Source: Bdellovibrio sp. (GTDB lineage Bacteria; Bdellovibrionota; Bdellovibrionia; Bdellovibrionales; Bdellovibrionaceae). Taken from it: a stretch of 64,000 bases of DNA. This document shows positions 15,711-34,898 of this stretch, in pieces. The translations under genes and the position numbers were made by a program. The notes under the pieces are model-generated. The model made no database searches. It saw nothing but the letters and a program-made list of their open reading frames with translations, and was not told the DNA's origin. The stretch's first letter is position 1. Every line of letters starts with the position of its first letter. Location of the stretch: positions 14,939 to 78,938 of the forward strand of contig JAYUOK010000057.1 of assembly GCA_043760925.1 (NCBI GenBank), read 5' to 3'.

Positions 15711-16516
15711 TATAACTTGTTCGTACTTTCGAATATTTTATCTGCCGACTTCGCGATAAAACCCTGATAAAGTTCTCCGCTTGGCATGGGGTAACGTTTT
15801 GCAAATTCATAGTAGCAGCCGGGGATCGAGTAAACCCCATCTGCAAATTCACATTGAATTTCCGCCGCCATTGTTGAACTTTGTTCAAGTAATTCTTCAG
15901 GGGTCCCTTTGATCTCTCCGCCTGAAGCATTCAGTTTGAAGCCATTACTTTTAATAAAATCATTCAATCGGTGGATGTCAGTAAAATTCTTAAGGTGATT
16001 GATGCTTACAGTGAAATGATTTGGTCTAAAGCCATAAGCGTAGACCCAAGAGGCATATTCACTTTCTTGCGCCAGTTTTAAATAAGTAGCATGGTTCGCG
16101 ATCCAGTGCCGCCCGCTGAAAACAAAGTCTTCGCTATCGGTCGCGCTGGGCTCTAACTGATTTATACACAAAGCAATTATTTCTTGAACAAATGAAGACA
16201 TTTTTTCTAACTCAAGCTCAGAAATAAATATCTTTGGTACATTTTTATCCGGATGTTCATAGTGCTTTGCGTACAATTTTTTTTCCGTAAAGAAATATTC
16301 CCCTGACTCTTTGTAACCGTATTTCAAAAAGTGTTTAGCTAATGAGTCGATGCCTAATTGCGGGTGTTTGAAAGTTCGAAGTGCTAAATGATCATTTGAT
16401 AAAACTTCGCCCGAATGGCTAAACAAGTTATGAATTTTCTCTGCGGTCGGATTCATTTTAAGATAGTCAATCCACATGTTATCCATATAGCGATGCAACT
16501 GAACAATTGAACTCAT
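15710..16516 (-). CDS. DUF1338 / 2-oxoadipate dioxygenase-decarboxylase (HglS/YdcJ)-like protein
   Basis: 268 aa. NDHLALRTF near the N-terminus and the overall size fit DUF1338 (VOC-like fold). GGGAG SD before ATG 16516. Confidence 0.7.
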   Translation of the reverse strand: MSSIVQLHRYMDNMWIDYLKMNPTAEKIHNLFSHSGEVLSNDHLALRTFKHPQLGIDSLAKHFLKYGYKESGEYFFTEKKLYAKHYEHPDKNVPKIFISELELEKMSSFVQEIIALCINQLEPSATDSEDFVFSGRHWIANHATYLKLAQESEYASWVYAYGFRPNHFTVSINHLKNFTDIHRLNDFIKSNGFKLNASGGEIKGTPEELLEQSSTMAAEIQCEFADGVYSIPGCYYEFAKRYPMPSGELYQGFIAKSADKIFESTNKL

Positions 16517-16645
16517 ACTGGCTCCCGTTTCAATTTTAAATTAGCTCAAATCTATTTGATTTCTAATTGGTATTTATTACAAATCTATTTACCAAAAATG
16601 CCATCCCGCTGCATAAGATTGACTGTGAAATTCGCTTCGGGTTTT

Positions 16646-18085
16646 ATGCTCCGGATGCTCAATTCATTTCGCTTCGCGTACTACCTTTTTATTTTTCTAT
16701 TTGGCTGCTTTTTTATGCTGCAACGGGCAGATGCGCAAAGTCTTTCAACGTCGGTGATCGAACGAACCGATTCTGACAAGGCTACGCCGCCTCAGCAGAA
16801 AATGACCTTTGGGCTTACAGGTTTAGGCTATGTTTCTGATTCCAGCACCGACCAATCTGCGCAGGGGCAAGCTGAGTTTTCACTTTCACTGAAAAAAGAG
16901 GGTTTCTTTTTCTCTGGGTTAGAAGTAACTGCGGGTACATTCACCGAGCCCCGATCTACTTATATTCCGGTACCCGAAGCTTACCTTGCCGTTGGTTCTG
17001 AAAAAGAAAATTTTGCTGCCGTCGGAATTAAATCGCAGTCATATAGTTTCATTGACCGGTATTACAACCTAGGAATGTACCAATCCTATTACACGAATGA
17101 TTTTATTAATTATAAAGAACAAGGTTTTACAGGCCTGCAAGTGCAGTTGCGTTCGGGACTGCTTGGATTTAAGGGCGGGTACCAGCCCATCTTTCTAAAA
17201 AACCAAGGACCTTCTGTTTATGAAAAAGATGGCCAGCTGGTCACTTCGAATCGTTGGGCCCGTCGGCCGCCAAAGCAATTTGAATTCGTCGAGGGTCAAG
17301 TTAAAGACATTGAATACGATATCCGTAACGACGATGTTGCCCAGATTATAACGAACCAAGGTCACACGTTGAGTTTCTTTTTGGGAGAGAATGCAGAGCG
17401 ACCATGGTTTCAAGCTTCCTACGCCCGCCATCCGCTGAATGAAATACCACTTAGCCGCGAGACCTACGGGTCGATCGGGGATTTTCGCGGTCATGTTCTG
17501 TTGTCTCCGGTTGTAACCGATCATGAAGTGAAGTCGGCAGATTTTAATTTAGACTCAGGCCCTTTTGAATCGACGCTTTCTTATCTTGAAGACCAACCCC
17601 AGAATTCTGAGCCACGTCCAGATGAAACTTTGCAAGTTTTTAATCCACTAAAAGTCTACGGAGTCTACATCGCGGTAGAACTAAAAGAGTTATTTAATCG
17701 ACCGCTGAAAATAAGCTTTTCCGCTGCAGAAATGCAGGGTGGCGAAATCAAAGAAGTCATGCAGGGCGGAAAAGAAAGTCTTTTTATTTTTGCATCTGAA
17801 AGAACGATTTTCAAACGGCCCATCTCATTAGGCGCCACTGGGGAATTTCTTTATATTGGTTCAAAACCGCTACGCACTTCAGTTCAGTGGACTTACGATC
17901 GGGCGCACCAAGGTTCGTTGATTTCAACAAAGTTAGCGCATGAAACATGGAAGCAAGTGTATCTGCACGGTGGTTTTGATTTATTAGGAGTCGAAAACGA
18001 ACCTTCGGTTGATGCGCAGGCAAATCACCTCAGCCGAAATCAGGCAAACGATCGATTTTTTGCCGGAGTCCAATATGTCTATTAA
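16646..18085 (+). CDS. OM beta-barrel-like protein, module A (paralog of 27887..29206)
   Basis: Signal-peptide-like MLRMLNSFRFAYYLFIFLFGCFFMLQRADA|QS and C-terminal ...FFAGVQYVY. Alignable with the paralog (PIFLKNQGPSVYEKDGQLVTSNRWARRPPKQFEFVEGQVKDIEYDI vs PIFIPDQGPGYDLKDGQFERSNPWFSNPPQNVRFQGEVFPIDYVI). Start uncertain (ATG 16598, 16646 or 16655; TTG 16556). Confidence 0.75.
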   Translation: MLRMLNSFRFAYYLFIFLFGCFFMLQRADAQSLSTSVIERTDSDKATPPQQKMTFGLTGLGYVSDSSTDQSAQGQAEFSLSLKKEGFFFSGLEVTAGTFTEPRSTYIPVPEAYLAVGSEKENFAAVGIKSQSYSFIDRYYNLGMYQSYYTNDFINYKEQGFTGLQVQLRSGLLGFKGGYQPIFLKNQGPSVYEKDGQLVTSNRWARRPPKQFEFVEGQVKDIEYDIRNDDVAQIITNQGHTLSFFLGENAERPWFQASYARHPLNEIPLSRETYGSIGDFRGHVLLSPVVTDHEVKSADFNLDSGPFESTLSYLEDQPQNSEPRPDETLQVFNPLKVYGVYIAVELKELFNRPLKISFSAAEMQGGEIKEVMQGGKESLFIFASERTIFKRPISLGATGEFLYIGSKPLRTSVQWTYDRAHQGSLISTKLAHETWKQVYLHGGFDLLGVENEPSVDAQANHLSRNQANDRFFAGVQYVY

Positions 18086-21083
18086 AATTGTATTTGCGAT
18101 AAGTCTTATACTGACCCTTGGGTGCGGTATTAAATTTGGTGAAAAAAATAAAGATGCAAACCAAACGGCGCAAGTCAAAAGCGCCCGTTGCTTAGATGAT
18201 TCGATCGCGGGTTTAAAATTATTCGTTAAAGGTGAAGCCAGCGATAAAAAAGTAGAAGAATCAGTTCTTTGTCTAAAGAATGTTTTCACCGCATTTAAAG
18301 AAAACATTCGGGGCCAAGAAAAAGAATCATTCACTTCAGATGAACTGAGCCAGTTTATCAAAGTGAACTTCTTAAAAGATGGAACTGAAATTACAAAAGA
18401 ATTCCAATTAGAAATAATGAAATTGAAAGTCGTCTTATTTGGCGGGACCGAAGCGATCATCCAGAAAAGCGAAATCGATCAAGTTGTTCTATTTATGGGC
18501 CGCTTAACAAATTCGTTAGTGAAGCTAAACCCCCACATGAAAATTATCAGCATGAATTGGGATTCAGTCGAAATCACTGAAGGGTCTGCAATTCGAAATT
18601 CGAAAGAAGGCCAGTTTTTACAAGCGAAAAAGGCATTCCAAGATTTTGTTATCACTTTCACCTCAGAGCTAAAACGCAATGATGCAGATTATGAAATCGA
18701 TGATCTCATTAATCTTGCTGTCGAAACTGCGAAATTCGCCAATAGTAAGTCAGATCTTATTAAAAATATTAAAATGCTGAAGCCCGTAGTGAAAAGGTTT
18801 AAGCGCAGCCTCATCGGCGGCAGTGATGCAATCAAAGGTTCCGAGTGGGACCGGCTTGGTCTAACCCTTGGCGAAGCTTATTTTCAAATGCTTCGGGTTA
18901 AATATTTCTTAAATCCTCTTAATGATAGTCGGAATGGCAACCCTGAAGAGGTGCGTGCTAAGCAATGGCAGATCTACAAAGAGATGGCCGTTGATGTCAG
19001 CCAGTTGTTTCAAAAGCTATTACTCGCTAAACAGAGCCAGTCTGTGGCCAATGCTGAATTAGCTGATATCATGGCTCCGCTTTCCGAAATATTTCCTCAA
19101 TTTCAGATCAATGAAGATTTGCTGTCAGGGATTAGTGATCTGAAGGTGATGTTACTAGGCCAAGGGGCAATGGGGCGGGAAGGCTGGACGCGTGCCGATT
19201 TAGTTAATCTAAATAAAAAAATCCCTATTCTGATGAAGAACCTGAGTGCAATTCTGAAAGTAGTAAATGAATTATCTAGCGAAAATGCATCACAAATTTC
19301 ATACGGGACTTTTAACCAATACGAAGTTCAGTTATTAACCGCCGCAGCAGAAATCAGTGATCTAGTAGAAGCCGGTTATGATTTAAGATCTTTGCAGCAG
19401 TTGTTAGAAAATTTAACGAAGACGATTCTGAAAGATGAACTTACATTGCCGGCAAACTTCATCCACGTGTTCAATGCCACCATTGCTGGTCAAACTTTAA
19501 TAACCGGCGAGAAAACCAGCCTGCTTTCTGCCAAAAATATGCAGCTGCTGATGAAGACGGGTTCTCGAGCTTTCTTAAATTTTCAAGAATACAATATGTA
19601 CTTGGCTAAGCTTTCTTCAAAAGATTTAGCCTTCAATGAAAACTCATTGCGACTTTGGCCAAAGTTAAGAAAAACTTTGACGGTGTCACTTAATCTAAAA
19701 AGCAGCCATGTGATCACAACCGAAGAAATTATTTCGTTCATTCAGGTCTTGCAGAATGAAAAGTTAATTGAAACTCATTTTCGTTCTGATAGTTTAAGTA
19801 AACTTTTAAACGCCGTATGGAGCCATTTATTAAATGATCCCGGTTCTCGGATTTCGACAAAAATGATTCATTCCGGGTTTAATTTACAAACCCTCGCGCA
19901 ACTTTCAAATGAAGTTGAAATCTACTTACAAAATCAAAAAAATATTTCGATTGTTTTCTCTTCGAATGGCCGAATTGAGAAGGGCTCCTTAATTAAGCTG
20001 TTATCAACAAAAATTGAATCTTCGACGATCAGTTCCGAAAAAATCGGTTTGACCGAGCTAAATCAATTTTTGCAGCAAAAGATTCCACTTAATTTCAACG
20101 AGCTTGGATATCTAAAAATTCTCACGAGCGATGTAGGAAATTATTCTTACCAGGATTTAGCGAAATCAAATTTAGCCCGGGCACTTTCCCGAATGATCAT
20201 ACGCGGGTACGCCGGCGATGCTGATCGCGCTCGTGACCTGACGGGGATCAATCTAGCTGAGGCTGAATTAATTTTTAGCCATTTTCGACCAGCCGCGATT
20301 GATCTTGATTTTCTGGAAGAATCTAATCTTACATTCATTCAATCACGGTTCAGAGAATCAAACCTTTTTCTGAGCCCTTCAAACGGTGATCAATTTGTTA
20401 ACTTTGCAGAAATGCACCAGTTGCTGTTGCATATATTTTCTGGAACGGCACGATCTAGCGATGTAAAAAATAAAATTAAACAAGAATGCTTACCGCAACT
20501 GACCACTCCGATCACTAGTCAAACTCCAGTCAACGAAGATTGCCTTCTTGAAGTCTACGCAAAAGAGCAAGCCGCTTTTCAAGATATGCCGCTGTTTTTA
20601 CAGATGAAAACTCAGTACACGGCCGAGCAAATGAAGGAATATTATTATTCATTACTTAAGGCGGCGGGGCATGTTCCGAATGCAGAAAAGGTCGTTTACT
20701 TCACGGATGTCGATTTATTTCCACACGTCATTCAGTACATCGAAATGCTTTACTCAGTTTACGATTTCAACCGTGATGGCTTTTTGCGAAAAGATGAAGC
20801 GTTCGCGGCTTTTCCGGTATTCAAAAGCTTGTTAGCGGAACTAGTTGCTTCGTTCAAACAAATCAAAGAAGAAGACCTTCAAGGCGTATTCATTTACATT
20901 TTGAAATACGGCCGACCGCCTAAAAAAGAAAGCATCGCAGAAGTTTTAAAATTTATCTCTTTCATCCGAGATAAAGAACAAAAAGGCTGGGATATTCAAA
21001 GTACGCGCCTCGAGCTAGGAAAGATTTTTAACTTTATTGCGGATGCAACGAAGCCTACGGCTCCGGTTGTTCCGCAGCCGTAA
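18075..21083 (+). CDS. Very large (about 1000 aa) helical lipoprotein with an EF-hand-like loop, module A (paralog of 29196..31580)
   Basis: ATG 18075 follows GGAG (18065-18068) and gives MSIKIVFAISLILTLGC (lipobox). It overlaps the upstream stop by 11 nt. EF-like loop DFNRDGFLRKDE (20763-20798). N- and C-terminal regions align with the paralog. Confidence 0.85.
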   Translation: MSIKIVFAISLILTLGCGIKFGEKNKDANQTAQVKSARCLDDSIAGLKLFVKGEASDKKVEESVLCLKNVFTAFKENIRGQEKESFTSDELSQFIKVNFLKDGTEITKEFQLEIMKLKVVLFGGTEAIIQKSEIDQVVLFMGRLTNSLVKLNPHMKIISMNWDSVEITEGSAIRNSKEGQFLQAKKAFQDFVITFTSELKRNDADYEIDDLINLAVETAKFANSKSDLIKNIKMLKPVVKRFKRSLIGGSDAIKGSEWDRLGLTLGEAYFQMLRVKYFLNPLNDSRNGNPEEVRAKQWQIYKEMAVDVSQLFQKLLLAKQSQSVANAELADIMAPLSEIFPQFQINEDLLSGISDLKVMLLGQGAMGREGWTRADLVNLNKKIPILMKNLSAILKVVNELSSENASQISYGTFNQYEVQLLTAAAEISDLVEAGYDLRSLQQLLENLTKTILKDELTLPANFIHVFNATIAGQTLITGEKTSLLSAKNMQLLMKTGSRAFLNFQEYNMYLAKLSSKDLAFNENSLRLWPKLRKTLTVSLNLKSSHVITTEEIISFIQVLQNEKLIETHFRSDSLSKLLNAVWSHLLNDPGSRISTKMIHSGFNLQTLAQLSNEVEIYLQNQKNISIVFSSNGRIEKGSLIKLLSTKIESSTISSEKIGLTELNQFLQQKIPLNFNELGYLKILTSDVGNYSYQDLAKSNLARALSRMIIRGYAGDADRARDLTGINLAEAELIFSHFRPAAIDLDFLEESNLTFIQSRFRESNLFLSPSNGDQFVNFAEMHQLLLHIFSGTARSSDVKNKIKQECLPQLTTPITSQTPVNEDCLLEVYAKEQAAFQDMPLFLQMKTQYTAEQMKEYYYSLLKAAGHVPNAEKVVYFTDVDLFPHVIQYIEMLYSVYDFNRDGFLRKDEAFAAFPVFKSLLAELVASFKQIKEEDLQGVFIYILKYGRPPKKESIAEVLKFISFIRDKEQKGWDIQSTRLELGKIFNFIADATKPTAPVVPQP

Positions 21084-21130
21084 TTCATATAGTTAAATTT
21101 TCTTATTACGATTTATATTAATACTTAGTC

Positions 21131-21667
21131 TTAAAACTTATTTTTAAACATCATCGACTCAACAGGTAGAGTCGTGCGGGTGTTGTACTTTGCGCCCGGT
21201 TTTTTATTGTACATGTTTTCAATGTCGCCTTTGGTTTCAAAATAAATCAGCTGGCCAATTGGCATTCCGCCGTAGACACGAACGGGCTGTTTAACTGAAA
21301 TCTCTAAAGTCCAATGATTGCAAAATCCAACATCACCCTTACCGGCCGTCGCGTGGATATCAATTCCTAAACGGCCAACGCTTGATTTTCCTTCTAGGAA
21401 GGGAACATGGGCTAGGGTTTCGGTATATTCTTCCGTGACGCCCAGATAGAACTTATCTGGCATCAATACATAACCCTCTTCAGGGATATCGAAAGTTTTA
21501 ATTTTATTGTGAGCTTTTGCATCTAAGATATCAGACTCGTAAGTCGCTAGAGTTTTGCTTAGGTGCACATCATATGAATTCGTGCCCAAGCACGATAAAA
21601 GAAAAGGCTCTACTTTAATAAGCCCTTTTTCCATGTGGTTCAGAATTTCTTTATCCGTAAGAATCAT
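21131..21667 (-). CDS. dcd: dCTP deaminase
   Basis: 178 aa. MILTDKEILNHMEKGLI...GTNSYDVHL...GKSSVGRLGI is typical of Dcd/dUTPase-fold trimers. Lies 8 nt downstream of rpmG. Confidence 0.88.
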   Translation of the reverse strand: MILTDKEILNHMEKGLIKVEPFLLSCLGTNSYDVHLSKTLATYESDILDAKAHNKIKTFDIPEEGYVLMPDKFYLGVTEEYTETLAHVPFLEGKSSVGRLGIDIHATAGKGDVGFCNHWTLEISVKQPVRVYGGMPIGQLIYFETKGDIENMYNKKPGAKYNTRTTLPVESMMFKNKF

Positions 21668-21675
21668 GAAAAAAA

Positions 21676-21855
21676 CTACTTAGTTTCGCGATGAACAGTG
21701 TGTTTTTGCATGTTCGGGTTGTACTTCTTTTTTTCAAGACGACCCGGAGTTTTAGTTTTATTCTTAGTTGTTGTATAACGAGAAACTGGTTTGCCTGCAG
21801 CTTTTGCTTCAGTGCACTCAAGAGTTACTATGATACGACCCGATTTTTTTGCCAT
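21676..21855 (-). CDS. rpmG: 50S ribosomal protein L33 (Cys-less 'C-minus' form)
   Basis: [67 protein letters not shown] before ATG 21855. The CxxC pairs of Zn-binding L33 are absent. Confidence 0.9.
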
Positions 21856-21939
21856 AAGACACCTCAATAATGAAAGAACGAATATAAGTAAGTTTACAGC
21901 GCCTAGTCAATGGAATATACATAAGACCGGGGGTTCATC

Positions 21940-24782: not shown

Positions 24783-25529
24783 ATGAAGCCCACGCGCCAA
24801 AATAGCCGAGTAATCAGCCTTGTTCCCTCGTGGACCGAAACATTTTTGGCGGCCGGAATCAATATTGTGGGGAAGACCCACTTTTGCATCCATCCAGATG
24901 ATAAAATTTCAAGCATTCCAAGCGTCGGTGGAACAAAAAACCTTCATATGGAAGCGATCATGAACTTGCGTCCTGATTATGTGATCTTGGATGAACAAGA
25001 AAACAAATTAGAAATGGCCGAGCAGTTGAGGGCGAACAGCATAAAAATTTTAACTTCGAACGTTACAGATTTTGATTCGGTCATTCAATTTTTACAAAGT
25101 ATGGCAGACATTCTGGATGAAAGTAAATTGAACGAATTTGCTGAGCGATATAAATCGGTCATCGGGCGAGATCAAATCAGCACAGAAAAATTTTGGGCTC
25201 AAATTTTACTAAAAGGTGATGTTCCCGATGCAAAATCAGCTATTGACTATGTGATTTGGAAAGATCCCTTTATGGTGATTGGTCAAAATACATTTATTGC
25301 AAATAATTTGAAATTAGTGGGATTCAATCTAGATCGAAGCGAGAAGTATCCTGAAGTCGCTGAAACTGAATTACGGCAGCGCTTTTGCCTGTTTTCAAGT
25401 GAACCTTACCGCTTTGACCGGAAGTTCGAAAAAATGATCTTAAGTGGGTTTCAAGGCGCACTGGTCGACGGTGAAAAGCTAAGCTGGTACGGCATTAGAA
25501 ATCTTTGTTTTTTAGAATCGTGTTTATAA
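24783..25529 (+). CDS. BtuF/TroA-like 'helical backbone metal receptor' protein without an obvious signal peptide
   Basis: VISLVPSWTETFLAAGINIVGKTHFC...IPSVGGTKNLHMEAIMNLRPDYVILDEQ matches the class III periplasmic-binding-protein pattern. The N-terminus MKPTRQNSRVISL has no hydrophobic leader. Confidence 0.65.
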   Translation: MKPTRQNSRVISLVPSWTETFLAAGINIVGKTHFCIHPDDKISSIPSVGGTKNLHMEAIMNLRPDYVILDEQENKLEMAEQLRANSIKILTSNVTDFDSVIQFLQSMADILDESKLNEFAERYKSVIGRDQISTEKFWAQILLKGDVPDAKSAIDYVIWKDPFMVIGQNTFIANNLKLVGFNLDRSEKYPEVAETELRQRFCLFSSEPYRFDRKFEKMILSGFQGALVDGEKLSWYGIRNLCFLESCL

Positions 25530-26757
25530 TCGTATTTAAAATTTTAAGCGTTGAGTTTTTTTGCGTCTGCATGACTGATTTAATCTTTTCTTTTAACTGA
25601 TTAGATAAACCATCAGGGGCGTCTTTCATTGCGGTTTCAATCTCAGCTATTGCCCGAAGTAAGTCAGACTGACATTGCGTCACGTAAATTATTTGCGGAT
25701 CGCGTAAGTCTTTGAAGCGAACAGCTTCAGGATTATTTTGATGGTAAGGCCCTAGCAAAACGGGAAGCCCGCAGCAAAGTGGCTCCATGACTGAATGAAC
25801 TTTCTCTTTGAAAGAACCGCCAACGAAAGCAATTTCGCCGTAGCGATAAAGATCTGCTAAATAGCCAATTTGATCGACGACTAAAATATCTGATGTAAAC
25901 TGTAAAGTTGATGAAGGTGCTTCAGAAAGAAGCTGGTGGGAATAATTTTGGCTGGAAATAACTTTTAGAATTCTTTGAATATTTGGCAGCGCCACTTCGT
26001 GAGGGCTCCAAATGATTTGATATTTCTTAGTCAATTCACGAAAAACGGGCAGAAGGTGAGCCTCGTCTTCTGGCCAGGTCGATCCGCAAATAAATATTGG
26101 ACGCTTATTTAAAACTTGTACTTTCGAGCTTTGTTCAAGGCGCCAAAAAACTTGGTCAAACCGCGTATCGCCATCCCTGGTCACCAATGTTTCAGGTGAC
26201 AAAATTTCACGTAGTTGCTGTACTTGGGCTTCTTCAACGCAAGAAATGAAGCTTACGTTTTTAAATAACCAGCGGTGCATCCACTTTTTAATCACGGTCA
26301 ATTCTCCAAAAAAAGACACAATGCAAATTGGGATTTTTGCATCGCCAGCCTGCTGTAAAAATTCAGGCCAAAAATCTGTTCTTGAAAAAATAATAAGTCG
26401 CGGATTAATTAAGCGGATTAGATTCTTAATTGCTCTTGGTTCATCCCAAGGCAGCGGAAAAAATTCATCGACGAATGGTTTAATATTGTTAAATAGTTTT
26501 TCGGCTGAAGGCGATGAATAGGTCACAACGATCTGCGCCTGGGGATTCGTTTTTTTAATATGGATAATGAGGGATTTAACATACTCAATTTCGCCGCTTG
26601 CCGCGTGAAACCAATAACTATCTTTCAAAGGTTGAAGTGCCTTTAAATTTCGTGACCTTAACGCAATCCAGGCTTGCATCTTTATACCTAAAAAAGGTTT
26701 AAGAACGATGACGAATGCTTTTAAAAGAAGATAAAAAAATCGGTAAATATAAATCAT
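25495..26757 (-). CDS. waaA: 3-deoxy-D-manno-octulosonic acid (Kdo) transferase
   Basis: N-terminal anchor, WFHAASGEIEY (cf. WxHxxSxGE), and a GT-B C-terminal half with FVGGSF...GHN-like region. Start ATG 26757 or GTG 26760 overlaps the upstream TGA. Confidence 0.85.
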   Translation of the reverse strand: MIYIYRFFYLLLKAFVIVLKPFLGIKMQAWIALRSRNLKALQPLKDSYWFHAASGEIEYVKSLIIHIKKTNPQAQIVVTYSSPSAEKLFNNIKPFVDEFFPLPWDEPRAIKNLIRLINPRLIIFSRTDFWPEFLQQAGDAKIPICIVSFFGELTVIKKWMHRWLFKNVSFISCVEEAQVQQLREILSPETLVTRDGDTRFDQVFWRLEQSSKVQVLNKRPIFICGSTWPEDEAHLLPVFRELTKKYQIIWSPHEVALPNIQRILKVISSQNYSHQLLSEAPSSTLQFTSDILVVDQIGYLADLYRYGEIAFVGGSFKEKVHSVMEPLCCGLPVLLGPYHQNNPEAVRFKDLRDPQIIYVTQCQSDLLRAIAEIETAMKDAPDGLSNQLKEKIKSVMQTQKNSTLKILNTIINTILKNKDF

Positions 26758-27755
26758 CACTGTTGGGAAGCCAGTTTAATATTTTTAATATGTTCAATCA
26801 CTTCATTTGGAGTAATTGCGCGAAGGCACTCGTGAAAATTCGGATTGATGCAGGGGCCTTGGCCATGCTTACTACATGGACGACATTTTAAATTTCTTTC
26901 TAAAATTAAAGTCGATGGTCGCGACGGAAAACCAAACGGGGCGGGGCCCATGAATGCAATCGCGGGCCGACCTAATTGTTCAGCGAAGTGTAAAAGGCCC
27001 GTATCATTACTGATCAGTAAATTTGCCTTTTCGATGATCGCTGCCGATTGAGTTAAATTGGATTGGCCAGTTAAATTGACGACATTTGCATACTGATTTA
27101 ACTCACTGGTAAAGGTATCGGCTTGTCCTGCTAAAACGACGAATTGGCGATCAGGCATGTTCGAAATAAGTTGATGCCAATACTCGAGTGGCCACCGCTT
27201 CAGTTCATAAGATGCCGAAGGAGCTAAGACAATTGGATTCATAAGTTGATGTTTGCTGAAGACATCCGTTGCATAGTTGCGAGATGCTTGATCTAGAAAT
27301 AATTGAGGGGTTGGTGGAAGAAAAAATTTATAATTCCACTTTTCAAGGGGCTTTAATAAATCACGTTGACCTGAAAAAGGTTTTTCAAAAAGATTGCGTT
27401 GGAATCTAATCAGTAAAAATCTTTTCAGCCGCATCATGGGTCGAACTAAAGTATTTGGCACAAATAAAAAACTTCGAATAACAAGCGATCGTAGATTATT
27501 ATGGGCATCATACAGATGCGTGAAATTTTCTTTACGAAGTTCTTGAATTAATTTCCATAAACCTTGCACGCCTAACTTGCGATCTAATTTCCAAACGCGT
27601 TCAATATTTGGATTGTTGTCGGCTAGTGAAGAAAGATCTTCCCGTGTTACAAAATGAATTCGAGCTTCTGGGGTATAGCTTTTTATCAGGCTTGGAATGC
27701 TAAGGGCTTGGGTCAGGTCCCCAATGCTTGAAAAGCGTATAATCAAAACTTTCAT
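26757..27755 (-). CDS. LPS heptosyltransferase (glycosyltransferase family 9)
   Basis: MKVLIIRFSSIGDLTQALSIP is the canonical GT9 N-terminus; LISNDTGLLHFA lies in the C-terminal half. ATG 27785 is the longer alternative. Confidence 0.85.
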   Translation of the reverse strand: MKVLIIRFSSIGDLTQALSIPSLIKSYTPEARIHFVTREDLSSLADNNPNIERVWKLDRKLGVQGLWKLIQELRKENFTHLYDAHNNLRSLVIRSFLFVPNTLVRPMMRLKRFLLIRFQRNLFEKPFSGQRDLLKPLEKWNYKFFLPPTPQLFLDQASRNYATDVFSKHQLMNPIVLAPSASYELKRWPLEYWHQLISNMPDRQFVVLAGQADTFTSELNQYANVVNLTGQSNLTQSAAIIEKANLLISNDTGLLHFAEQLGRPAIAFMGPAPFGFPSRPSTLILERNLKCRPCSKHGQGPCINPNFHECLRAITPNEVIEHIKNIKLASQQ

Positions 27756-27886
27756 ATCCGCTATGATATTTACAAAATCTGGCATGTGTCTAGAGCTAGC
27801 AGTCTAAACGCATTAAATGCTCTTTAAAACCACCAGATTCGCTTACATGCATTTTTTAAGGCATACGGCTTGTAGGTATCATTGAT

Positions 27887-29206
27887 ATGAGATTCACCAA
27901 ATGGTTTTTAGTTTTAATAATTCTTAGTCACACGATGGTGTCTCATTCTGATATGAAGTCGACTTTAGAGGTCGACAGTCTTACTTTTTTAAGTCCCGAT
28001 TATGAAACCACCGAGAAAAAAAGTTTCTTATTCGCGGGTGCAACCATAGCTTCGAATCCGGCAAAGCCCGATTTATTTATGCTTAATTTGACGGGACGTT
28101 ATGCCGTCGGTCAGTCCGTTTTAAGTTACCTGAACATCCGCGAAATTTATTTTACTTACGAGACTGACTCAAGTTCATCGATTCATGTTGGACGAAAACT
28201 AAATAATTGGTCAGCTCTTGATTCAGACTGGAACTTAGGGTTTTTTCAACCGCAGTTTCGCTGGAATCCAGTTGATCCTGAAAACCAAGGCATGACCGGA
28301 CTTTTCTGGGAAAGAAACGAAGCTTTCTGGGGCTTAACTCTTTTTGCATCACCAATTTTTATTCCAGATCAGGGGCCTGGCTACGATCTTAAAGACGGAC
28401 AATTCGAGCGAAGTAATCCTTGGTTTTCTAATCCCCCGCAAAATGTCAGATTTCAGGGCGAAGTTTTCCCAATCGATTATGTTATTCTTAAACCTGAGAC
28501 GACAGATGTTATTTTTCAGCCTGTTTATGCTGCTAGCTTTCGACTGGGTGAAAAGACCGGACTTTATTCAAATATAGCCGGCGCATTTAAACCGGCTCAC
28601 CAGTTGGCGCTTGCGTATAAAGCGACGCATGTAGTTTCAAGAGTTCGTGTCGATGTTATTCCGAAAACATATTTAGAAAATATTTACTCTGCCGACGTTG
28701 GCTACCGCGACGATTGGGGCGCGGCCCAGTTTTCCGTGCTTTATACAAAACCTCAAACGCCAGAGTTCGAATCGGGGTATAACGTTCCGATTCTTGACGA
28801 GAGCGTCAGCTGGGGGCCCAAGATTGTTTACCGTTTGAAACCCTTTCAGTTCGGAATTTCTTATCTGGATACGACTGGCGGCGCAGTGAAAGAGACCGGC
28901 CCCGACGTGGCAAGCGACCGAGCGGCGCTCACGCAGCGTTACTTATTTCGCCAAGCGGTGCAAGTACAAGCCTCATACAGAGAAATTTTATTTAAAAAAG
29001 TTTTAATTGATTCAAGCATCCAGTGGCGAAGTAGTACCAAAGATGAATTCACTGAAATTCGCTTTAAAAATAAATTCGACTTACGGGGTCCATGGTCTTT
29101 TTGGGCCGACCTCACTTTAATTGAAACTGCAGACAAAACTCTTTCAAATATGGGCCCTTACAGGAATATTGATCAAGTATGGATTGGAGCCGGCTATGAT
29201 ATCTAG
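27887..29206 (+). CDS. OM beta-barrel-like protein, module B (paralog of 16646..18085)
   Basis: Signal peptide MRFTKWFLVLIILSHTMVSHS and C-terminal ...VWIGAGYDI. Alignable with module A (see that entry). Confidence 0.8.
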   Translation: MRFTKWFLVLIILSHTMVSHSDMKSTLEVDSLTFLSPDYETTEKKSFLFAGATIASNPAKPDLFMLNLTGRYAVGQSVLSYLNIREIYFTYETDSSSSIHVGRKLNNWSALDSDWNLGFFQPQFRWNPVDPENQGMTGLFWERNEAFWGLTLFASPIFIPDQGPGYDLKDGQFERSNPWFSNPPQNVRFQGEVFPIDYVILKPETTDVIFQPVYAASFRLGEKTGLYSNIAGAFKPAHQLALAYKATHVVSRVRVDVIPKTYLENIYSADVGYRDDWGAAQFSVLYTKPQTPEFESGYNVPILDESVSWGPKIVYRLKPFQFGISYLDTTGGAVKETGPDVASDRAALTQRYLFRQAVQVQASYREILFKKVLIDSSIQWRSSTKDEFTEIRFKNKFDLRGPWSFWADLTLIETADKTLSNMGPYRNIDQVWIGAGYDI

Positions 29207-31580
29207 AATTTTTCGAACCTCAATAGTAGTCATTGCTTTAGGCAGTGTTACAGTATCGTGTACAGATTTTCTGCGCGGCAAGCCAGAGAAAAAAGAAACG
29301 ATCGTAGTCGAGAAAGAATCACTTAGTTGTTTAAAACAGGTCGCTACGCAATTTAAAAATTTACTTAAGTCTGAAGCAAGTGAAAAAGATGTTGATGCAA
29401 GTTTTGCTTGTCTTGATAAAACACTGAGCGAATTTCAAAATCGCGTTGAAGGACGAAGCGATGCCCATTCATTTACGGCCGAAGAACTGCATGAAATATT
29501 TGAACGATTTTTAAAAGACGTTGAGGTTTCAAGAGAAGCAACAACAGATTTATTAGTTCTGAAAACGGCCATATTGGGTGGTAGCAATGATAAGATTACA
29601 AAAAAAGAAATTAGCGACCTAAGAAATTTTCTTTCAGTCTTGAAACCCGAATTGAAGGCACTGATTCCTTACGCAAAAATATTTGCTTTTAAAAAAGGTG
29701 ATACCGCGTATTTAAAAAGTGTTATCAAAGGCGCATTCGATCAACTTAATTTAAGTTTAAAAAAGTTAATTAAAGTAACTTATATTACGCGTTCAGATTA
29801 CCGATTCGAAGATTTTAAACGCCTAGTTACGCATCTAAATGTGATCGAAGGCGAAAAAAATAATCTGATGGAGCTAGCGAGTAAAGTTAAAAATCTACTG
29901 GTTGGAAACTACACGTTGCAGACCGAGGCTGATTATTACTTGTTCGTAGATAATTTAACAGAGATTTTACGCCTGTACTCGACGCAAGTTCAAGGAAATG
30001 TAAAATTTGAAATTTCGACAGGTAGCCATATGAACACCTCAATCGAATATATTCAAAGCTGGCTAGTGCTGCTTGAAAACTCAGTACAGTATAAGAATAA
30101 ACAAACGATTGCCCTTGATTCGTTGAATCCACTCATTGAAGAAATCGCTGCGCAGGGCATTCTACCGGTACAAATACAAGGAACAACTTTAGTTGAATTT
30201 TATAAGATGTTGATCGTTCGTGTATTCGAATCGGGTCGTCATGGAGATATCGCAAAAATAACCGGTCTTAGCCAGGTTCACTTCACAAACTTAAAAAGAG
30301 AAATTGCCATCTACCGACTTTACATGGAATTCATCAATGCGGTCGCCGTTGATGATGTTCGAATACCAATCAAAAGTATTCAAACGCAGCTAAGACAGTA
30401 TAATCCGAAAGCTCAAGAAAGCATTCTTAAATCGGTTCATGCAAGCGAGCATGCGAAAGTACTTCGTTCTTTTGATGAGTTACGCAATGAATTTCTAAGT
30501 GCGCGGCCGGTGGTTTATCGTTTTAAAAAAATGGTTATCGCAAATAACCAAGAGGTTTGGGATCAGAACTGGGAAGATTTAGCACGTGGTTTTTATGCAA
30601 AGATGCTTGCGCGCCAGTTATTAATTGGATGGGGAATGTTCACCCCATCGCGTGAAAACCCAACCGGTTATGCTTCAAAAGAGGTATCGCATTCTCACTT
30701 AACCGAAGATGCACTGGTGCAGTGGTACGCTGAGTTCAGACAGTTCGGAATCGAAACGAAAGCTTTCGATCCGCGATCTGTTAATTCGGGCGCTGAAAGT
30801 TTTAAGCAGGCTGACTTGCTAACGTTTTCGGCCGATGGCGACGGAAAGATGAACTTCTTTGAAACCGTACAATACGTTAATTTGCTAGTCTCTGGCGGCG
30901 GCCAAACTCTGAGCGAAATTCGTGCGGGGCTTGGCCGGGCCGGTTGCAACTTAACCGAAAAAGATGCGTTTGACTATGTTTGGAATAACGAAGCCTGCGC
31001 GATTGATGATTTGCGCAAAAACTTTAAATTTTATTTCTCGAATTTGTCGTGGTTAACTGCTTTTGTTGAGCGCTTGAATGATCAACAATTTGTTGATTTC
31101 TATTCCCAGTTGATGGATGTAACCCGATTTGACGCTCGTTTTAAGGGTATTCAAATTGAAACGGTTGATCTGCGTTCAATGTCGATTATTCTGCATTACA
31201 TTGAATCGTTATTCAGTACCTTCGATAAAAATTCGAACGGCACCCTGTCTGAATCTGAAATAAGAACTTCGTATGTACGATTTAAAGCTTTTGCAAAAAG
31301 TTACGCGTTTGAAAACTCTAAAGCACAAATTGACGAGTTTAATGGCTTACTAGGGCGCACGGTCTATGGGTGTTATTCAGAAGAAGATTTAATTCGCGAA
31401 TCGTTTATTTTCCTGGTTTACAACGGGAAAACGCCGACAAAAAATAATCTAAGCACTTTGCCTTGTATTTGGGGGTTACGAAAGCCACTCATTAAATTTT
31501 CGGCTTATGCGGAAGTGGATCGAAAAACGGTTATTAATACTTTTAAAATTTTAAAAGCCGTATTAGGCTCTAAGAAATAG
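29196..31580 (+). CDS. Large (about 795 aa) helical lipoprotein with a canonical EF-hand loop, module B (paralog of 18075..21083)
   Basis: ATG 29196 follows GGAG (29186-29189) and gives MISRIFRTSIVVIALGSVTVSC (lipobox). 11-nt overlap with the upstream stop. DKNSNGTLSESEI (31224-31259) satisfies the PROSITE EF-hand loop pattern; a second degenerate loop is SADGDGKMNFFE. Confidence 0.85.
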   Translation: MISRIFRTSIVVIALGSVTVSCTDFLRGKPEKKETIVVEKESLSCLKQVATQFKNLLKSEASEKDVDASFACLDKTLSEFQNRVEGRSDAHSFTAEELHEIFERFLKDVEVSREATTDLLVLKTAILGGSNDKITKKEISDLRNFLSVLKPELKALIPYAKIFAFKKGDTAYLKSVIKGAFDQLNLSLKKLIKVTYITRSDYRFEDFKRLVTHLNVIEGEKNNLMELASKVKNLLVGNYTLQTEADYYLFVDNLTEILRLYSTQVQGNVKFEISTGSHMNTSIEYIQSWLVLLENSVQYKNKQTIALDSLNPLIEEIAAQGILPVQIQGTTLVEFYKMLIVRVFESGRHGDIAKITGLSQVHFTNLKREIAIYRLYMEFINAVAVDDVRIPIKSIQTQLRQYNPKAQESILKSVHASEHAKVLRSFDELRNEFLSARPVVYRFKKMVIANNQEVWDQNWEDLARGFYAKMLARQLLIGWGMFTPSRENPTGYASKEVSHSHLTEDALVQWYAEFRQFGIETKAFDPRSVNSGAESFKQADLLTFSADGDGKMNFFETVQYVNLLVSGGGQTLSEIRAGLGRAGCNLTEKDAFDYVWNNEACAIDDLRKNFKFYFSNLSWLTAFVERLNDQQFVDFYSQLMDVTRFDARFKGIQIETVDLRSMSIILHYIESLFSTFDKNSNGTLSESEIRTSYVRFKAFAKSYAFENSKAQIDEFNGLLGRTVYGCYSEEDLIRESFIFLVYNGKTPTKNNLSTLPCIWGLRKPLIKFSAYAEVDRKTVINTFKILKAVLGSKK

Positions 31581-31599
31581 CTAGAAAGAGTATCGCAAC

Positions 31600-32748
31600 A
31601 TGATGTTTTCTATCCCGAGATATAAATGGGCCGTTCTTTTTGCCTGTTTAAGTATGATTGTTTTAGGCCTGGCGGATAATATTCGCGGACCACTATTTGC
31701 TGAGCTTCTTCATTTTTTCAGTTTATCAAATACACAAGGGTCGGCCACTTTTGCAGCTACTTCGGCAGCAGCTTTCTTTGGCAACGTTGTTTCCGCGCCG
31801 CTGATGCGAATTATGACGCTAGCGCGTTTACTTATTTTTTCAGTTCTGATGATGGCTCTTGGCCTTTTTGCAATGGGCATTGCTCCCACATTCGTCGTCT
31901 ACATGTTGAGCGCAGTCGTTTTTGGTTTCAGTTTAGGATTAATGGCAGTCGTTCAAAATTTGATCGTTGCTGAAAATGTAGTAACTGAAAAGCAACCGAA
32001 AGCGTTATCTGCTTTGCACGCGCTGTACGGTCTTTCAAGTTTGCTCGCTCCATTTATTGCCTCACGTGCCCCCGAGATCTTTGGGCCTTGGAGAAGTGCA
32101 TTCTTCATAACAAGTGCCGCCTGCGCTGTCGTTGTTGTTGGTGCATTAATAGCCTATTCTGAACCTGCGTTCGAAATTCATCAGCGAACGAAAGAACAAG
32201 TTGATCATCGTGCTTCAAAACTTCTACTTTTTGCATTCGGTGGAATTTTTGCTTTCTATGTGACGGCCGAAATTTTAGTTGCAACACGCCTGGCGCTTTA
32301 TTTAAGAACCTACTTTAATATGGATCTCGAGCAATCAAGTAATTACGTCAGTTATTTCTTTATGTTTTTACTGCTGGGACGCGCGATCTTTGCAGTGAAA
32401 ACTTTTAAAATTTCATTACGACAGCAGATGAATATTTCTTTAATCACATCCATTTTGTGTTTAATCGCGGGCCTTTGGTATCACCCGTTTTTTTTGGCAG
32501 TGGTTGGTTTGGCAATGGCTCCTTTCTATCCGATATCGGTCGCTTATATATCAGAAAAGACGGGCACTGAAAAAAGAAAATTTATTACCTTCGCTTTAAG
32601 TTTTCAAAGTTTATGTGTTATCTGTATGCATTTGGGAGTTGGGTATCTGACTGACCAGTATGGTTTGTTTTACGCTTTCGGCATTGGTTTACTTTCATTG
32701 GTCTTTTCATTACTTTGTGTGAACTTTCATCCGAAGGTGACATCGTGA
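31600..32748 (+). CDS. MFS transporter
   Basis: 382 aa, about 12 TM helices in 6+6 organisation. 19 nt downstream of the lipoprotein gene. Confidence 0.85.
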   Translation: MMFSIPRYKWAVLFACLSMIVLGLADNIRGPLFAELLHFFSLSNTQGSATFAATSAAAFFGNVVSAPLMRIMTLARLLIFSVLMMALGLFAMGIAPTFVVYMLSAVVFGFSLGLMAVVQNLIVAENVVTEKQPKALSALHALYGLSSLLAPFIASRAPEIFGPWRSAFFITSAACAVVVVGALIAYSEPAFEIHQRTKEQVDHRASKLLLFAFGGIFAFYVTAEILVATRLALYLRTYFNMDLEQSSNYVSYFFMFLLLGRAIFAVKTFKISLRQQMNISLITSILCLIAGLWYHPFFLAVVGLAMAPFYPISVAYISEKTGTEKRKFITFALSFQSLCVICMHLGVGYLTDQYGLFYAFGIGLLSLVFSLLCVNFHPKVTS

Positions 32749-33740
32749 TTGCTTTTCTAATTTGTTTTTTTACCGTGACAATCGCGTGGGCTGACAACAG
32801 CCCTTTTCGAACGGCTTTGGTCGAAAGCTTTGTCGACCATCAAAAAATAACAGCGGTCAGCGAGCGGGACGATTGGGAAGTGGGCGAAATTCTTTCGGTG
32901 GTTTCCAGAAATGCAAAATTAGGTGTGATTGGGTTCGTGGAAGTAAATTCAATACGTGCGCTTTCAGCTAGAAAATTCGAAATACGACTTAGATTACTAC
33001 GTCAGTCCAGAAAATATTTTATTCAAACGGGCGATGTCATCAGGCGTATGGATCTAACGGTTGATAATAATGATTACATTGGCACGACTGATTTATTGAT
33101 TAAGCAAAGTAGTTTTAACGTGTCATCGAAATATCGCCCGTTGACGTATCAAGGTATTATTATCGGTGATACGGCACAGACGTTGTATAAAAAAGAAATG
33201 CTAGTGAATTACTTCGGCAATTTTATGTACGGCTATAACGAATGGCTGACAGTTGGAACTCTCATTCCCGCAAATGTTTTTGGTAAGCCGAACGGCAGTT
33301 TTAAGGCCCGTGTTCATGATACTGAAGCCACCACGCTATCGACCGGGCTTTCGTTCGTACGCATCACGCAGAATGATGAAGCCTCGCTGAACTGGAACCT
33401 TTACTGGGATTCAACATCTTCGGAAGCATTAATCAGTCACACTTTTGTAAGTGTTGGTTTAGTCAAGTGGGAAAAGGCAGCCGAGGCTACGGCCATCAAA
33501 GCACTTGGTTCAAGTTCTTTTCAAACAGGCTACGAGGTTATTTTAAATAGCTGGGATCGATTACTTGTTGGACCAAGTTATAATTTTGAAAAAAAAGCGC
33601 TCGGCGGTTATTTATCTTACGTGTGGATCATGAACCGCATGCACGTGCAAGTTTCCGCCAATGCGACGGATATCACGAAATTAAAATTCAGCGCGTCTGA
33701 CGGTTACTACGGCTTCTTTGAAATGTATTGGAGATTTTAA
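32745..33740 (+). CDS. Secreted / OM beta-barrel-like hypothetical protein
   Basis: GTG 32745 overlaps the MFS stop (GTGA) after GAAGGTGA. Leader VIAFLICFFTVTIAWA. Beta-rich, with C-terminal ...FFEMYWRF (aromatic terminal residue as in OMPs). Confidence 0.68.
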   Translation: MIAFLICFFTVTIAWADNSPFRTALVESFVDHQKITAVSERDDWEVGEILSVVSRNAKLGVIGFVEVNSIRALSARKFEIRLRLLRQSRKYFIQTGDVIRRMDLTVDNNDYIGTTDLLIKQSSFNVSSKYRPLTYQGIIIGDTAQTLYKKEMLVNYFGNFMYGYNEWLTVGTLIPANVFGKPNGSFKARVHDTEATTLSTGLSFVRITQNDEASLNWNLYWDSTSSEALISHTFVSVGLVKWEKAAEATAIKALGSSSFQTGYEVILNSWDRLLVGPSYNFEKKALGGYLSYVWIMNRMHVQVSANATDITKLKFSASDGYYGFFEMYWRF

Positions 33741-34898
33741 TTGGCTAAATTTTTTGTCAGTTGCCCAGTTGGTTTCGAAGCCGAGTTAGTTTCAGAGCTA
33801 AAAGATTTTTGGTTTGAAATGTTTGACTTAGACGGACTTCCCACCCGGAGTGCTCTCCCTGAACATGTAGCATGGCCGGGCGGAATTGAAATCGAAGTCG
33901 AAGATCATCTAGGCTATCAAATCAATTTTTTTACGAAGATGGCAAATCGCGTGTTAGTACGGATCGCCTATTTTAATTCACGCTATTTCGATCAATTTGA
34001 AAAAGAACTTAACCGCGTTGCCATTGAAAAGTGGCTTGGGCCGCAGGCGGTGCAAGTTAAAGTCGAATATCATAAGTCTAGATTGAACAATGAAAAAAAC
34101 ATAATTGAAGCCGTGACCAGTAGTCTGGGCAAAAAGAAGTTTAAGGTCGTTGCAACTTCAGCTGATGAAATCCCTACGATTTATTTTCGTTTAGACAAAG
34201 ACAATGTAACGGTGAGCTTAGATACCTCGGGCGGCCACTTACACAGGCGTGGCTATGCGCAGTTTCGTGGTGAAGCGCCAATTCGGGAAAATTTAGCAGC
34301 CATGATGATTCGTCAACTGGCAAAAAAGGCAAACATCAACCAGCGCTTAACTTTGATCGATCCGTTTGCGGGGTCAGGAACCATCTTATTTGAAGCGGCA
34401 TCCATGCAAGAGGCTGCACTGAAGCGATCTTATTCATGGCAAAAATTTATTAATCGGCCAAAATTATTTCGATCGGAAGTTTGGTCAAAGAATTATCGCT
34501 GGTTACAGAGTCCTAAAAACTTCAACATGATTGCCATTGATGAAGATGAGAAATCGATTACGAATCTTCAGCGAAACCTAGCCCTATTCGATGAACTTTA
34601 CCCAAATGTTAAACTTGGGATCGAGACTCACGTTGCAGACAGTATGAACGTTAATCTAGAAGCTTTTGGTCAGCGCGAAAATCTGTGGATCGTCACCAAT
34701 CCACCGTATGGACATCGTCTTGAGCAGGGAGAAGCCTTACCTATCCTTGAGCGTTTTGAGCGCGAGTTGCCAATACAGGGGATGATCATATTGCACCCCG
34801 AGCCATGGTATTTCAACTTTGAGTCACTTCGTAAGAGTTCGCAATTAGACTTTAAAAATCAGGGTCTTAGATTAAAACTTTCAGTGTTTACCCGCTAG
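33741..34898 (+). CDS. THUMP-domain class I SAM-dependent RNA (m2G-type) methyltransferase
   Basis: HRRGY...GEAPIRENLAAMMI, LIDPFAGSGTILFEAA (SAM motif I), TNPPYGHRL (N/D-PPY catalytic motif). TTG start abuts the upstream stop. Confidence 0.85.
   Translation: MAKFFVSCPVGFEAELVSELKDFWFEMFDLDGLPTRSALPEHVAWPGGIEIEVEDHLGYQINFFTKMANRVLVRIAYFNSRYFDQFEKELNRVAIEKWLGPQAVQVKVEYHKSRLNNEKNIIEAVTSSLGKKKFKVVATSADEIPTIYFRLDKDNVTVSLDTSGGHLHRRGYAQFRGEAPIRENLAAMMIRQLAKKANINQRLTLIDPFAGSGTILFEAASMQEAALKRSYSWQKFINRPKLFRSEVWSKNYRWLQSPKNFNMIAIDEDEKSITNLQRNLALFDELYPNVKLGIETHVADSMNVNLEAFGQRENLWIVTNPPYGHRLEQGEALPILERFERELPIQGMIILHPEPWYFNFESLRKSSQLDFKNQGLRLKLSVFTR

Follow-up and report, generated by a model that had tools for sequence, protein, structure and literature searches.

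The 64-kb stretch of Bdellovibrio sp. DNA considered here (GenBank assembly GCA_043760925.1, contig JAYUOK010000057.1, positions 14,939 to 78,938; below called the window, with positions counted from its first letter) carries two copies of a two-gene module, in which a gene for a predicted outer membrane β-barrel protein is followed by a gene for a long, predicted helical lipoprotein. All four open reading frames (ORFs) lie on the plus strand. In module A the barrel gene A1 (16646..18085) encodes 479 amino acids (aa) from the upstream ATG used in the ORF list; a second in-frame ATG lies 9 nucleotides (nt) downstream, and the orthologues found at the same position in relatives are 474–475 aa long. 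The lipoprotein gene A2 (18075..21083) encodes 1002 aa with the lipobox LTLGC and Cys17. In module B the corresponding genes are B1 (27887..29206, 439 aa) and B2 (29196..31580, 794 aa; lipobox VTVSC, Cys22). An earlier note on this DNA had placed the four genes at these coordinates, and every peptide string quoted in it is present in the translations.

The note had also regarded the two copies as related, which is borne out by BLASTP: A1 and B1 align with E=4e-23 (24% identity over 314 aa), and A2 and B2 align at both ends, with E=1e-14 (31% over 140 aa) at the N-termini and E=1e-9 (21% over 304 aa) at the C-termini, the middle region of A2 being ~240 aa longer than that of B2. With similarity far above chance at all three places, modules A and B are true paralogous pairs. 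Purpose-built hidden Markov models (HMMs) of both families detected no further barrel or lipoprotein copies in the window; A1 matches the barrel-family HMM with 7.5e-107, A1 itself being part of that alignment.

In both modules the start of the lipoprotein gene overlaps the stop of the barrel gene by 11 nt (ATGTCTATTAA at 18075..18085 and ATGATATCTAG at 29196..29206, plus strand), and GGAG stands 6 nt 5' of the lipoprotein ATG (18065–18068 for A2 and 29186–29189 for B2). A scan of the region 16000–35900 gave 38 promoters against 39.4 in shuffled sequence and 27 terminators against 20.8; counts at the shuffle level give no information on operon boundaries.

Conservation of the pair and of its junction

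The pairing was assessed by searches of six-frame ORFs with the purpose-built HMMs. Wherever enough DNA follows the barrel gene, the lipoprotein gene lies immediately 3' of it in essentially all loci, and about 82 of the 86 barrel genes examined are paired. Synteny in relatives had been set beforehand as one of the points on which the idea of a two-gene system would turn, and the pair is clearly syntenic. The junction was compared in 73 adjacent pairs from loci L001–L080 and the window. In 73/73 the ATG of the lipoprotein frame is found at –11, counted from where the barrel stop codon ends, and it is made of the antepenultimate barrel codon and the following G, this codon being TAT (Tyr) or CAT (His) in every case; a Shine-Dalgarno-like motif precedes the ATG in 71 of them. 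The fixed order, barrel gene first and lipoprotein second with start overlapping stop, had been noticed in the two modules of the window and proves to be general in the junction set. The fixed ATG suggests codon-level selection on the overlapping start. The identical 11-nt overlap is found also in type-A orthologues (type A and type B denote here the relatives of modules A and B), in the tandem modules of L085, in a third genomic context (L086/L087), and in L089.

Tandem duplications of the whole module were observed at L078 (568–4474 and 4621–8557) and L085 (6629–10205 and 10366–14311), from which it follows that the pair duplicates as a unit. At two loci from metagenome-assembled genomes the lipoprotein gene is cleanly missing from an otherwise conserved type-B neighbourhood: at L020 the barrel gene (1721–3070) is directly followed by a gene for a major facilitator superfamily (MFS) transporter (3081–4259), and the same order is found at L021 (5756–7084 and 7137–8306).

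Co-evolution was estimated from Kimura-corrected distance matrices of five neighbouring proteins in 44 loci. The barrel and lipoprotein distances showed the highest raw correlation of the neighbours tested (r=0.908), and the partial correlation given the GT9 glycosyltransferase, KdtA, and the methyltransferase encoded nearby was also the highest, 0.613 versus 0.536 for GT9 and KdtA, two proteins that act in one pathway. The distance correlation, which is not to be read as a probability, supports a functional or physical link between the barrel and the lipoprotein.

The earlier note had recognised no named family in either partner, and this assessment holds against the databases. No Pfam or NCBIfam model matched A1 or B1 at E≤1, and 44 barrel relatives gave just 3 scattered chance matches against Pfam at E≤0.1. 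A2 and B2, scanned with Pfam and NCBIfam, and 40 lipoprotein relatives, scanned with Pfam, gave only sub-threshold or near-threshold EF-hand matches in addition to chance ones; in sequence profiles of the PDB the barrel had no match, and the lipoprotein matched EF-hand proteins marginally at best. The NCBI and UniRef label of the orthologues, those of B. bacteriovorus included, is "hypothetical protein", the exact A2 protein is present in NCBI/Logan without a name, and a full-text search of the published literature gave nothing on the barrel–lipoprotein pair. According to these data the pair represents an undescribed envelope gene pair.

A word-indexed search recovered 116 homologues of B1 and 39 of B2, and the organism names on them were only Bdellovibrio and Pseudobdellovibrio. 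An HMM scan of 1.84 billion representatives assigned to the barrel family 992 clusters (50% identity) at E≤1e-3 and 668 at ≤1e-30. Scanning of GTDB species genomes returned 80 type-B loci, named Bdellovibrio, Pseudobdellovibrio, Bdellovibrionales, Bdellovibrionota, or Oligoflexia with the exception of a few generic or mis-binned labels, and the recovered loci are thus restricted to Bdellovibrionota. The type-A lipoprotein is represented by 11 further clusters (~990–1060 aa, 37–47% identity). Of the two modules in the window, the type-B one is widely conserved, and its type-A paralogue is narrower in distribution.

Predicted structures of the two proteins

Both barrel proteins possess a hydrophobic N-terminal leader, with a putative signal peptide ending in ..RADA|QS in A1 and in ..VSHS|D in B1, and end in ..GVQYVY and ..GAGYDI, respectively; the family consensus C-terminus is ..SYDF, where the window copies have ..YVY (A1) and ..YDI (B1). 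The first protein had been described as β-barrel-like from its letters, and the AlphaFold2 model of B1, built from a 44-sequence alignment, agrees with this: it is all-β, with a predicted local distance difference test score (pLDDT) of 90.8, a predicted template modelling score (pTM) of 0.84, and 24 DSSP β segments. When two pairs of segments split by just 2 residues (bulges) are merged, 22 strands remain, with turns of 2–7 residues on one side and loops of 2–36 residues on the other, as expected of an outer membrane barrel. B1 is modelled as a large β-barrel of about 20–24 strands, which begins directly after the signal peptide and has no N-terminal helical domain.

In the Foldseek search of the PDB only outer membrane barrels were found among the top matches listed for B1, 209 of them with E≤0.001. 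The nearest fold is AlgE (E 3e-9, template modelling (TM) score ~0.5, 9% identity); MOMP, OccK-type channels, and general porins come next. By the leader, the all-β model of B1, and these barrel-only neighbours, A1 and B1 are generic outer membrane barrels as far as prediction goes, the fold of A1 being deduced from its homology to B1.

The near-invariant residues of the family fall mostly in two loops of B1. The first, after strand 5 (aa 102–138; 28190..28300, plus strand), is rich in invariant Trp, Gly, Pro, and Gln and contains a short helix in the DSSP assignment, with pLDDT ≥92; an ordered long loop after strand 5 with a short helix resembles the porin constriction loop L3. The second, a signature loop after strand 7 (aa 156–186, PIFIPDQGPGYDLKDGQFERSNPWFSNPPQN; 28352..28444, plus strand), stands out in BLASTP, in column conservation, and in the model, has the consensus PIFIPDQGP..KDGQ..SN.W...PPQ, and is the best-conserved stretch common to A1 and B1, its A1 counterpart being PIFLKNQGPSVYEKDGQLVTSNRWARRPPKQ (17186..17278, plus strand). 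Over residues 105–135 and 156–191 the pLDDT is 80–95. A catalytic outer membrane enzyme of OMPLA, PagP, or OmpT type was also considered for the barrel and rejected, as no conserved His stands among the near-invariant columns and no profile matched.

For the second protein the AlphaFold2 model of B2, built from a 40-sequence alignment, is all-helical with pLDDT 88.8 and pTM 0.84, in accordance with the largely helical character ascribed to it before; A2 is expected from homology to share this fold. In the Foldseek search with B2 no PDB entry had E<0.1. A part of the model resembles penta-EF-hand domains (sorcin, calpain small subunit, ALG-2) with target-normalised TM 0.5–0.58 over ~185 columns and Foldseek E ≥0.27, and a likeness to α-solenoids (CRM1, Nup192, AP2) was dismissed at low probability and TM ≤0.15. 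The modelled fold of B2 appears to be without a solved relative.

The lipobox Cys is present in 38 of the 40 aligned lipoprotein relatives, the other two being N-terminally truncated, and with LTLGC in A2 and VTVSC in B2 both window copies carry the lipobox of bacterial lipoproteins and are predicted to be lipidated. Residues 1–35 of B2 have pLDDT <50 and are predicted to be disordered. The basic linker that follows the lipidated Cys (CTDFLRGKPEKKE; 29259..29297, plus strand) belongs to this part and by column counts is strongly conserved in spite of the predicted disorder, with the family consensus C-[ST]-[DE]-F-L-K-G-K-P-K-K; this combination is typical of segments that become ordered on a partner. 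The Cys pairs C44/C71 and C583/C600 are conserved, in both paralogues, which fits an exported protein.

Near the C-terminus the lipoproteins carry loops of calcium-binding type, compared here with the 12-residue motif D-x-[DNS]-x-[DNS]-G-x-[ILV]-x-x-x-E between helices. The clearest is the EF-hand loop of B2 DKNSNGTLSESE (aa 677–688; 31224..31259, plus strand), matched below the cut-off by Pfam EF-hand_1 with E=1.6e-4; its counterpart in A2, DFNRDGFLRKDE (aa 897–908; 20763..20798, plus strand), is indicated by a sub-threshold Pfam EF-hand match and by column conservation. Across the 40 relatives Asp1, Asp/Asn3, Asn/Asp/Ser5, and Glu12 of this loop are invariably kept (40/40), and position 8 fits the motif in 40/40 as well; an EF-hand_6 match at E≤0.01 was obtained for 14 of the 40. 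A second, semi-canonical EF-hand-like loop of B2, SADGDGKMNFFE (aa 545–556; 30828..30863, plus strand), was indicated by the PDB profile search and column counts and keeps positions 3, 4, 5, 8, and 12, with Asp seldom at position 1. Judged by these motifs the lipoprotein is probably calcium-binding. The DSSP pattern of B2 (helix, short strand, helix) hinted at EF-hand-like repeats throughout, but no internal repeats came out when 12 sub-alignments were compared with one another by hhalign, and the EF-hand claim is accordingly limited to the two C-terminal loops.

Genomic neighbourhoods

Divergent from B1, on the minus strand, lie genes identified by Pfam and NCBIfam as a KdtA-like Kdo transferase (25495..26760) and a GT9 heptosyltransferase-like protein (26757..27785), and the two are found divergently upstream of the type-B barrel in 72 of 80 loci. 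Downstream of B2 three closely spaced genes continue in the direction of B1–B2 (31600..34898, plus strand): an MFS transporter gene (31600..32748, Pfam/NCBIfam; present in 56/80 loci), a gene for a 341-aa signal-peptide protein of no family (32715..33740; 40/80), and an RlmL-like methyltransferase gene (33741..34898, Pfam/NCBIfam; 61/80). The 341-aa protein gave no Pfam, NCBIfam, or PDB sequence match; it has a signal-peptide-like N-terminus, a β-rich sequence, and the C-terminus ..EMYWRF, and its gene directly follows the lipoprotein gene in the B. bacteriovorus loci. With it the type-B cluster may encode a third component of the envelope.

Between modules A and B a gene for a FabMG-type enoyl-ACP reductase is conserved (23409–24704, minus strand; Pfam E=1.7e-169), and this gene recurs beside the modules in the distant loci L078 and L085. 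At L085 the two tandem modules adjoin FabMG, KdtA, and GT9 genes in a different arrangement, which indicates that the tie of type B to lipid A-core genes exceeds frozen synteny.

Type A keeps the same position beside the dcd gene in the two relatives inspected; at L082 and L083 it lies between the HGLS and dcd genes, and at L081 ~9 kb upstream of the type-B module of that genome, in each case as in the window. A third barrel subfamily (482–568 aa, with an N-terminal extension) is found at L086/L087, L088, and L090, where Peptidase_M14 and α/β-hydrolase genes always precede the barrel gene and a convergent Peptidase_S8 gene lies opposite. Members at L086/L087 have a lipoprotein partner, and those at L088 and L090 have none, no lipoprotein gene being present within ±6 kb of the barrel.

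Several other genes were recorded in passing. A 230-aa signal-peptide protein ending in ..FLVFYF (15018–15710, minus strand) is outer-membrane-protein-like and belongs to no NCBIfam family, and a 230-aa gene without a Pfam match lies at the corresponding position upstream of the type-A modules of L081–L083. At L081 an HTH/HipA toxin-antitoxin-like pair (18399–19927) is inserted between a TroA-like gene and kdtA, which is not so in the window. The minus strand of the window further contains a 565-aa ORF (2524–4221) containing a long low-complexity tract of Ser and Gly (SSGGSFSSGGSISSGGS...) and a 371-aa putative lipoprotein (8426–9541; ..LFAGC) in which a Cys-rich domain comes after a long tract rich in Pro and Val (PPVVVPPPVIVPPP...). 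A 313-aa signal-peptide, β-rich protein ending in ..NLALY (37184–38125, plus strand) is outer-membrane-protein-like and by the purpose-built HMMs unrelated to the barrel family.

Proposed function and comparison with known systems

The pairing is well supported; for the mechanism, which we infer, the reading put forward here is a tentative one with a probability of roughly 0.45: the two proteins of each module would be subunits of one stoichiometric outer membrane complex, in which a porin-like specific channel is combined with a Ca2+-binding helical lipoprotein. The first gene would provide the large β-barrel of about 20–24 strands, and the lumen is probably entered or covered by the conserved loops that follow strands 5 and 7, in the manner of porin loop L3, which would make the channel specific rather than general. 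The 11-nt overlap would couple translation of the lipoprotein to that of the barrel and favour equimolar synthesis, and the lipoprotein would dock on the barrel as an accessory, either lid, gate, or ligand-binding scaffold. The likely interface consists of barrel loop 156–186 and of the basic tether and N-terminal domain of the lipoprotein, proposed because these parts are the best conserved between the A and B paralogues, and at least one conserved EF-hand site would make the docking Ca2+-dependent.

Several observations weigh against this channel-plus-accessory model. The pairing is not obligate, since barrels without an adjacent lipoprotein gene occur at L020, L021, L088, and L090 and a lipoprotein without a barrel at L084. 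The proposed interaction is drawn from gene order, coupling, and rate covariation, and the last could partly reflect that both are fast-evolving envelope proteins. The likeness of the B1 model to known channels is at the level of the generic fold (TM ~0.5, 9–10% identity), and its strand count and the placement of the conserved loops were read from DSSP strings and not from coordinates. In the EF-hand loop of B2 (677–688) Gly stands at position 6 in just 13 of 40 members, and the Pfam EF-hand score of B2 is 21.4 bits against a cut-off of 25.4, that of A2 being weaker, so that both are sub-threshold. In the B. bacteriovorus loci no MFS gene is present at the position next to the module, and no substrate emerges; the MFS gene and the GT9/KdtA linkage are competing hints, the former at small-solute uptake and the latter at glycolipid or polymer handling.

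In a bolder form the channel-plus-accessory model would describe a phylum-specific machine of predatory Bdellovibrionota without a homologue among known barrel–lipoprotein systems, that is, a Ca2+-gated channel with a new lipoprotein fold, which moves a specific class of molecules, such as nutrients from the prey or precursors of envelope glycolipids, across the outer membrane and has diversified into several paralogous specificities per genome; taken in all its parts, this is unlikely.

Even less probable are two other explanations, which stand at about the same level. According to the first, the pair would be an export module similar to AlgK/AlgE or to BcsC, PelB, and PgaA, where a periplasmic helical scaffold hands a polymer or glycolipid to the barrel in connection with the lipopolysaccharide (LPS)-core glycosyltransferases. 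In synthase-dependent exporters a 16–18-strand barrel does go together with a large periplasmic part of helical (TPR) type; the best structural match of the present barrel is AlgE, the conserved loops of this barrel contain many Trp, Phe, Asn, and Gln residues, as sugar-binding sites do, and the GT9 and KdtA genes, divergent in 72/80 loci, stand again beside the tandem modules in the rearranged L085. On the other hand, GT9 and KdtA build the LPS core, which is exported by Lpt, and the type-A and third-context modules lie in unrelated contexts; the likeness to AlgE is just TM ~0.5 at 9% identity, no TPR/SEL1 or Alginate_exp Pfam match was obtained in any family member scanned, and the conserved neighbourhood contains no synthase, co-polymerase, or cyclic di-GMP receptor gene. 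The second explanation is a structural one, in which a Ca2+-dependent anchor or scaffold would stabilise or remodel the outer membrane of the predator without transport. The association with lipid A-core and fatty-acid genes would find an explanation here, and the idea is in line with the recovery of type B from 80 genome loci across Bdellovibrionota, where it lies among conserved housekeeping genes of the envelope (FabMG, KdtA, GT9), and with the large, rigidly predicted helical body (pTM 0.84) bearing a conserved Ca2+-type site. However, Pfam scans found no peptidoglycan-binding or known tethering domain, a large barrel with conserved internal-type loops is more typical of channels and enzymes than of anchors, and several paralogues per genome in varied contexts better fit a diversified specificity.

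Less credible still is the pair of translocon and cargo, similar to Slam or two-partner secretion, in which the barrel would export its cognate lipoprotein to the cell surface. This analogy was favoured by the earlier note and found no support in the comparison. The fixed gene order, the strict translational coupling, and the co-evolution of barrel and lipoprotein would suit it, and the conserved disordered basic segment after the lipidated Cys could serve for targeting or threading. But at E≤1 neither barrel matched a Pfam model, and hence none of DUF560, TPR, POTRA/ShlB, or TPS; Slam substrates and TpsA β-helices are unlike the lipoprotein, which is ~800–1000 aa long, has conserved Cys pairs, and is predicted to be compact and helical; and the strongest conservation of the barrel lies in structured loops typical of a channel constriction. 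The barrels that persist without an adjacent lipoprotein gene argue against the barrel being solely the translocon of that lipoprotein and fit an autonomous channel with an optional accessory better. The least probable alternative is that the two are co-expressed, functionally independent envelope proteins, whose overlap would be no more than a compact operon layout inherited from a shared ancestor. Bacterial operons of this compact kind often contain overlapping genes, and orphan barrels and one orphan lipoprotein exist, but the pair was duplicated and moved as a unit into at least 3 contexts and into tandem arrays with always the same 11-nt geometry, every one of the 73 junctions forms its ATG from TAT or CAT and a G, and the partial distance correlation of barrel and lipoprotein is the highest of the neighbour pairs tested.

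Pairs of a barrel and a lipoprotein, such as LptDE, SusCD, AlgKE, and the Bam subcomplexes, perform key processes of the outer membrane, and the present pair is a conserved two-gene module left without annotation in the databases searched. Predation of Bdellovibrio is routinely run in Ca2+-containing buffer, which makes the conserved EF-hand site of interest. The pair occurs in cultivable strains of B. bacteriovorus, where genetics is possible; among the orthologues in strains Bd5 and kdesi are the lipoproteins WP_374000143.1 and WP_262551735.1. Experiments can start from the invariant 11-nt coupling, from this EF-hand site, or from the conserved association of type B with lipid A-core genes. 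Should the pair prove to be a specific, gated channel or a factor in envelope assembly, it would account for some of the many "hypothetical" proteins in the envelopes of predators, and the module would be a candidate determinant of predatory physiology.

Among the known systems AlgE/AlgK of Pseudomonas is similar in joining an outer membrane barrel with a helical outer membrane lipoprotein encoded by the adjacent gene. It differs in that the present barrel shares 9% identity with AlgE, neither Alginate_exp (PF13372) nor TPR/SEL1 profiles match, the barrel gene comes first (the reversed order) outside any polysaccharide synthase operon, and the lipoprotein is at least twice as long, carries EF-hand loops, and has no PDB fold match. 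SusC/SusD of Bacteroidota likewise has a barrel gene followed by a helical lipoprotein gene, duplicated as a unit many times per genome and sometimes with an inner-membrane MFS transporter nearby, the SusD-type lipoprotein being a lid or ligand binder on the barrel. In contrast, no TonB-dependent receptor, plug, or SusD (PF07980/PF14322) match was found here in Pfam and NCBIfam, the barrel has about 440–570 aa versus ~1000 aa, and the pair was recovered only from Bdellovibrionota. With the porins that possess loop L3 (OmpC/OmpF, OccK/OprD, chitoporin, MOMP) the barrel shares the all-β architecture, the C-terminal aromatic signal, and the helix-bearing loop after strand 5, but it has no porin Pfam match, 24 DSSP β segments versus 16–18 strands, a second long conserved loop after strand 7, and a translationally coupled lipoprotein partner.

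In Slam and two-partner secretion (TpsB/TpsA) a barrel gene also adjoins the gene of an exported partner. Unlike Slam, A1 and B1 match neither the C-terminal 14-strand barrel DUF560 (PF04575) nor the periplasmic TPR domain in front of it, the B1 model has no N-terminal helical domain, and B2 is modelled as all-helical, whereas the substrates of TbpB, LbpB, and fHbp type are built of a C-terminal β-barrel and handle; unlike two-partner secretion, where the barrel is of Omp85 type with 16 strands and POTRA domains, there is no ShlB, POTRA, or TPS profile, and the partner is predicted to be helical and lipidated and not a β-helix. LptD/LptE, in which LptE plugs a 26-strand LptD barrel bearing an N-terminal β-jellyroll, differs by the lack here of PF04453/PF04390 matches, by a barrel without an N-terminal domain, and by a helical lipoprotein of 794–1002 aa in place of the small LptE. 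Penta-EF-hand proteins resemble B2 locally in structure and share one 12-residue loop with ligands at positions 1, 3, 5, and 12, but the lipoprotein has one or two recognisable loops in ~800 aa and is by prediction lipidated and exported, whereas they are cytosolic eukaryotic proteins. In summary, the pair may work somewhat like AlgK/AlgE, SusC/SusD, and porin-accessory pairs, but it fails each defining profile or domain test for Slam, two-partner secretion, SusCD, AlgE/AlgK, and LptDE, and on present predictions it can be classified only as a generic outer membrane barrel with a lipoprotein bearing an EF-hand-type loop. A barrel with a partner lipoprotein is of a known general kind; what is new are the two protein families, the predicted fold of the lipoprotein, and the invariant geometry of the coupling.

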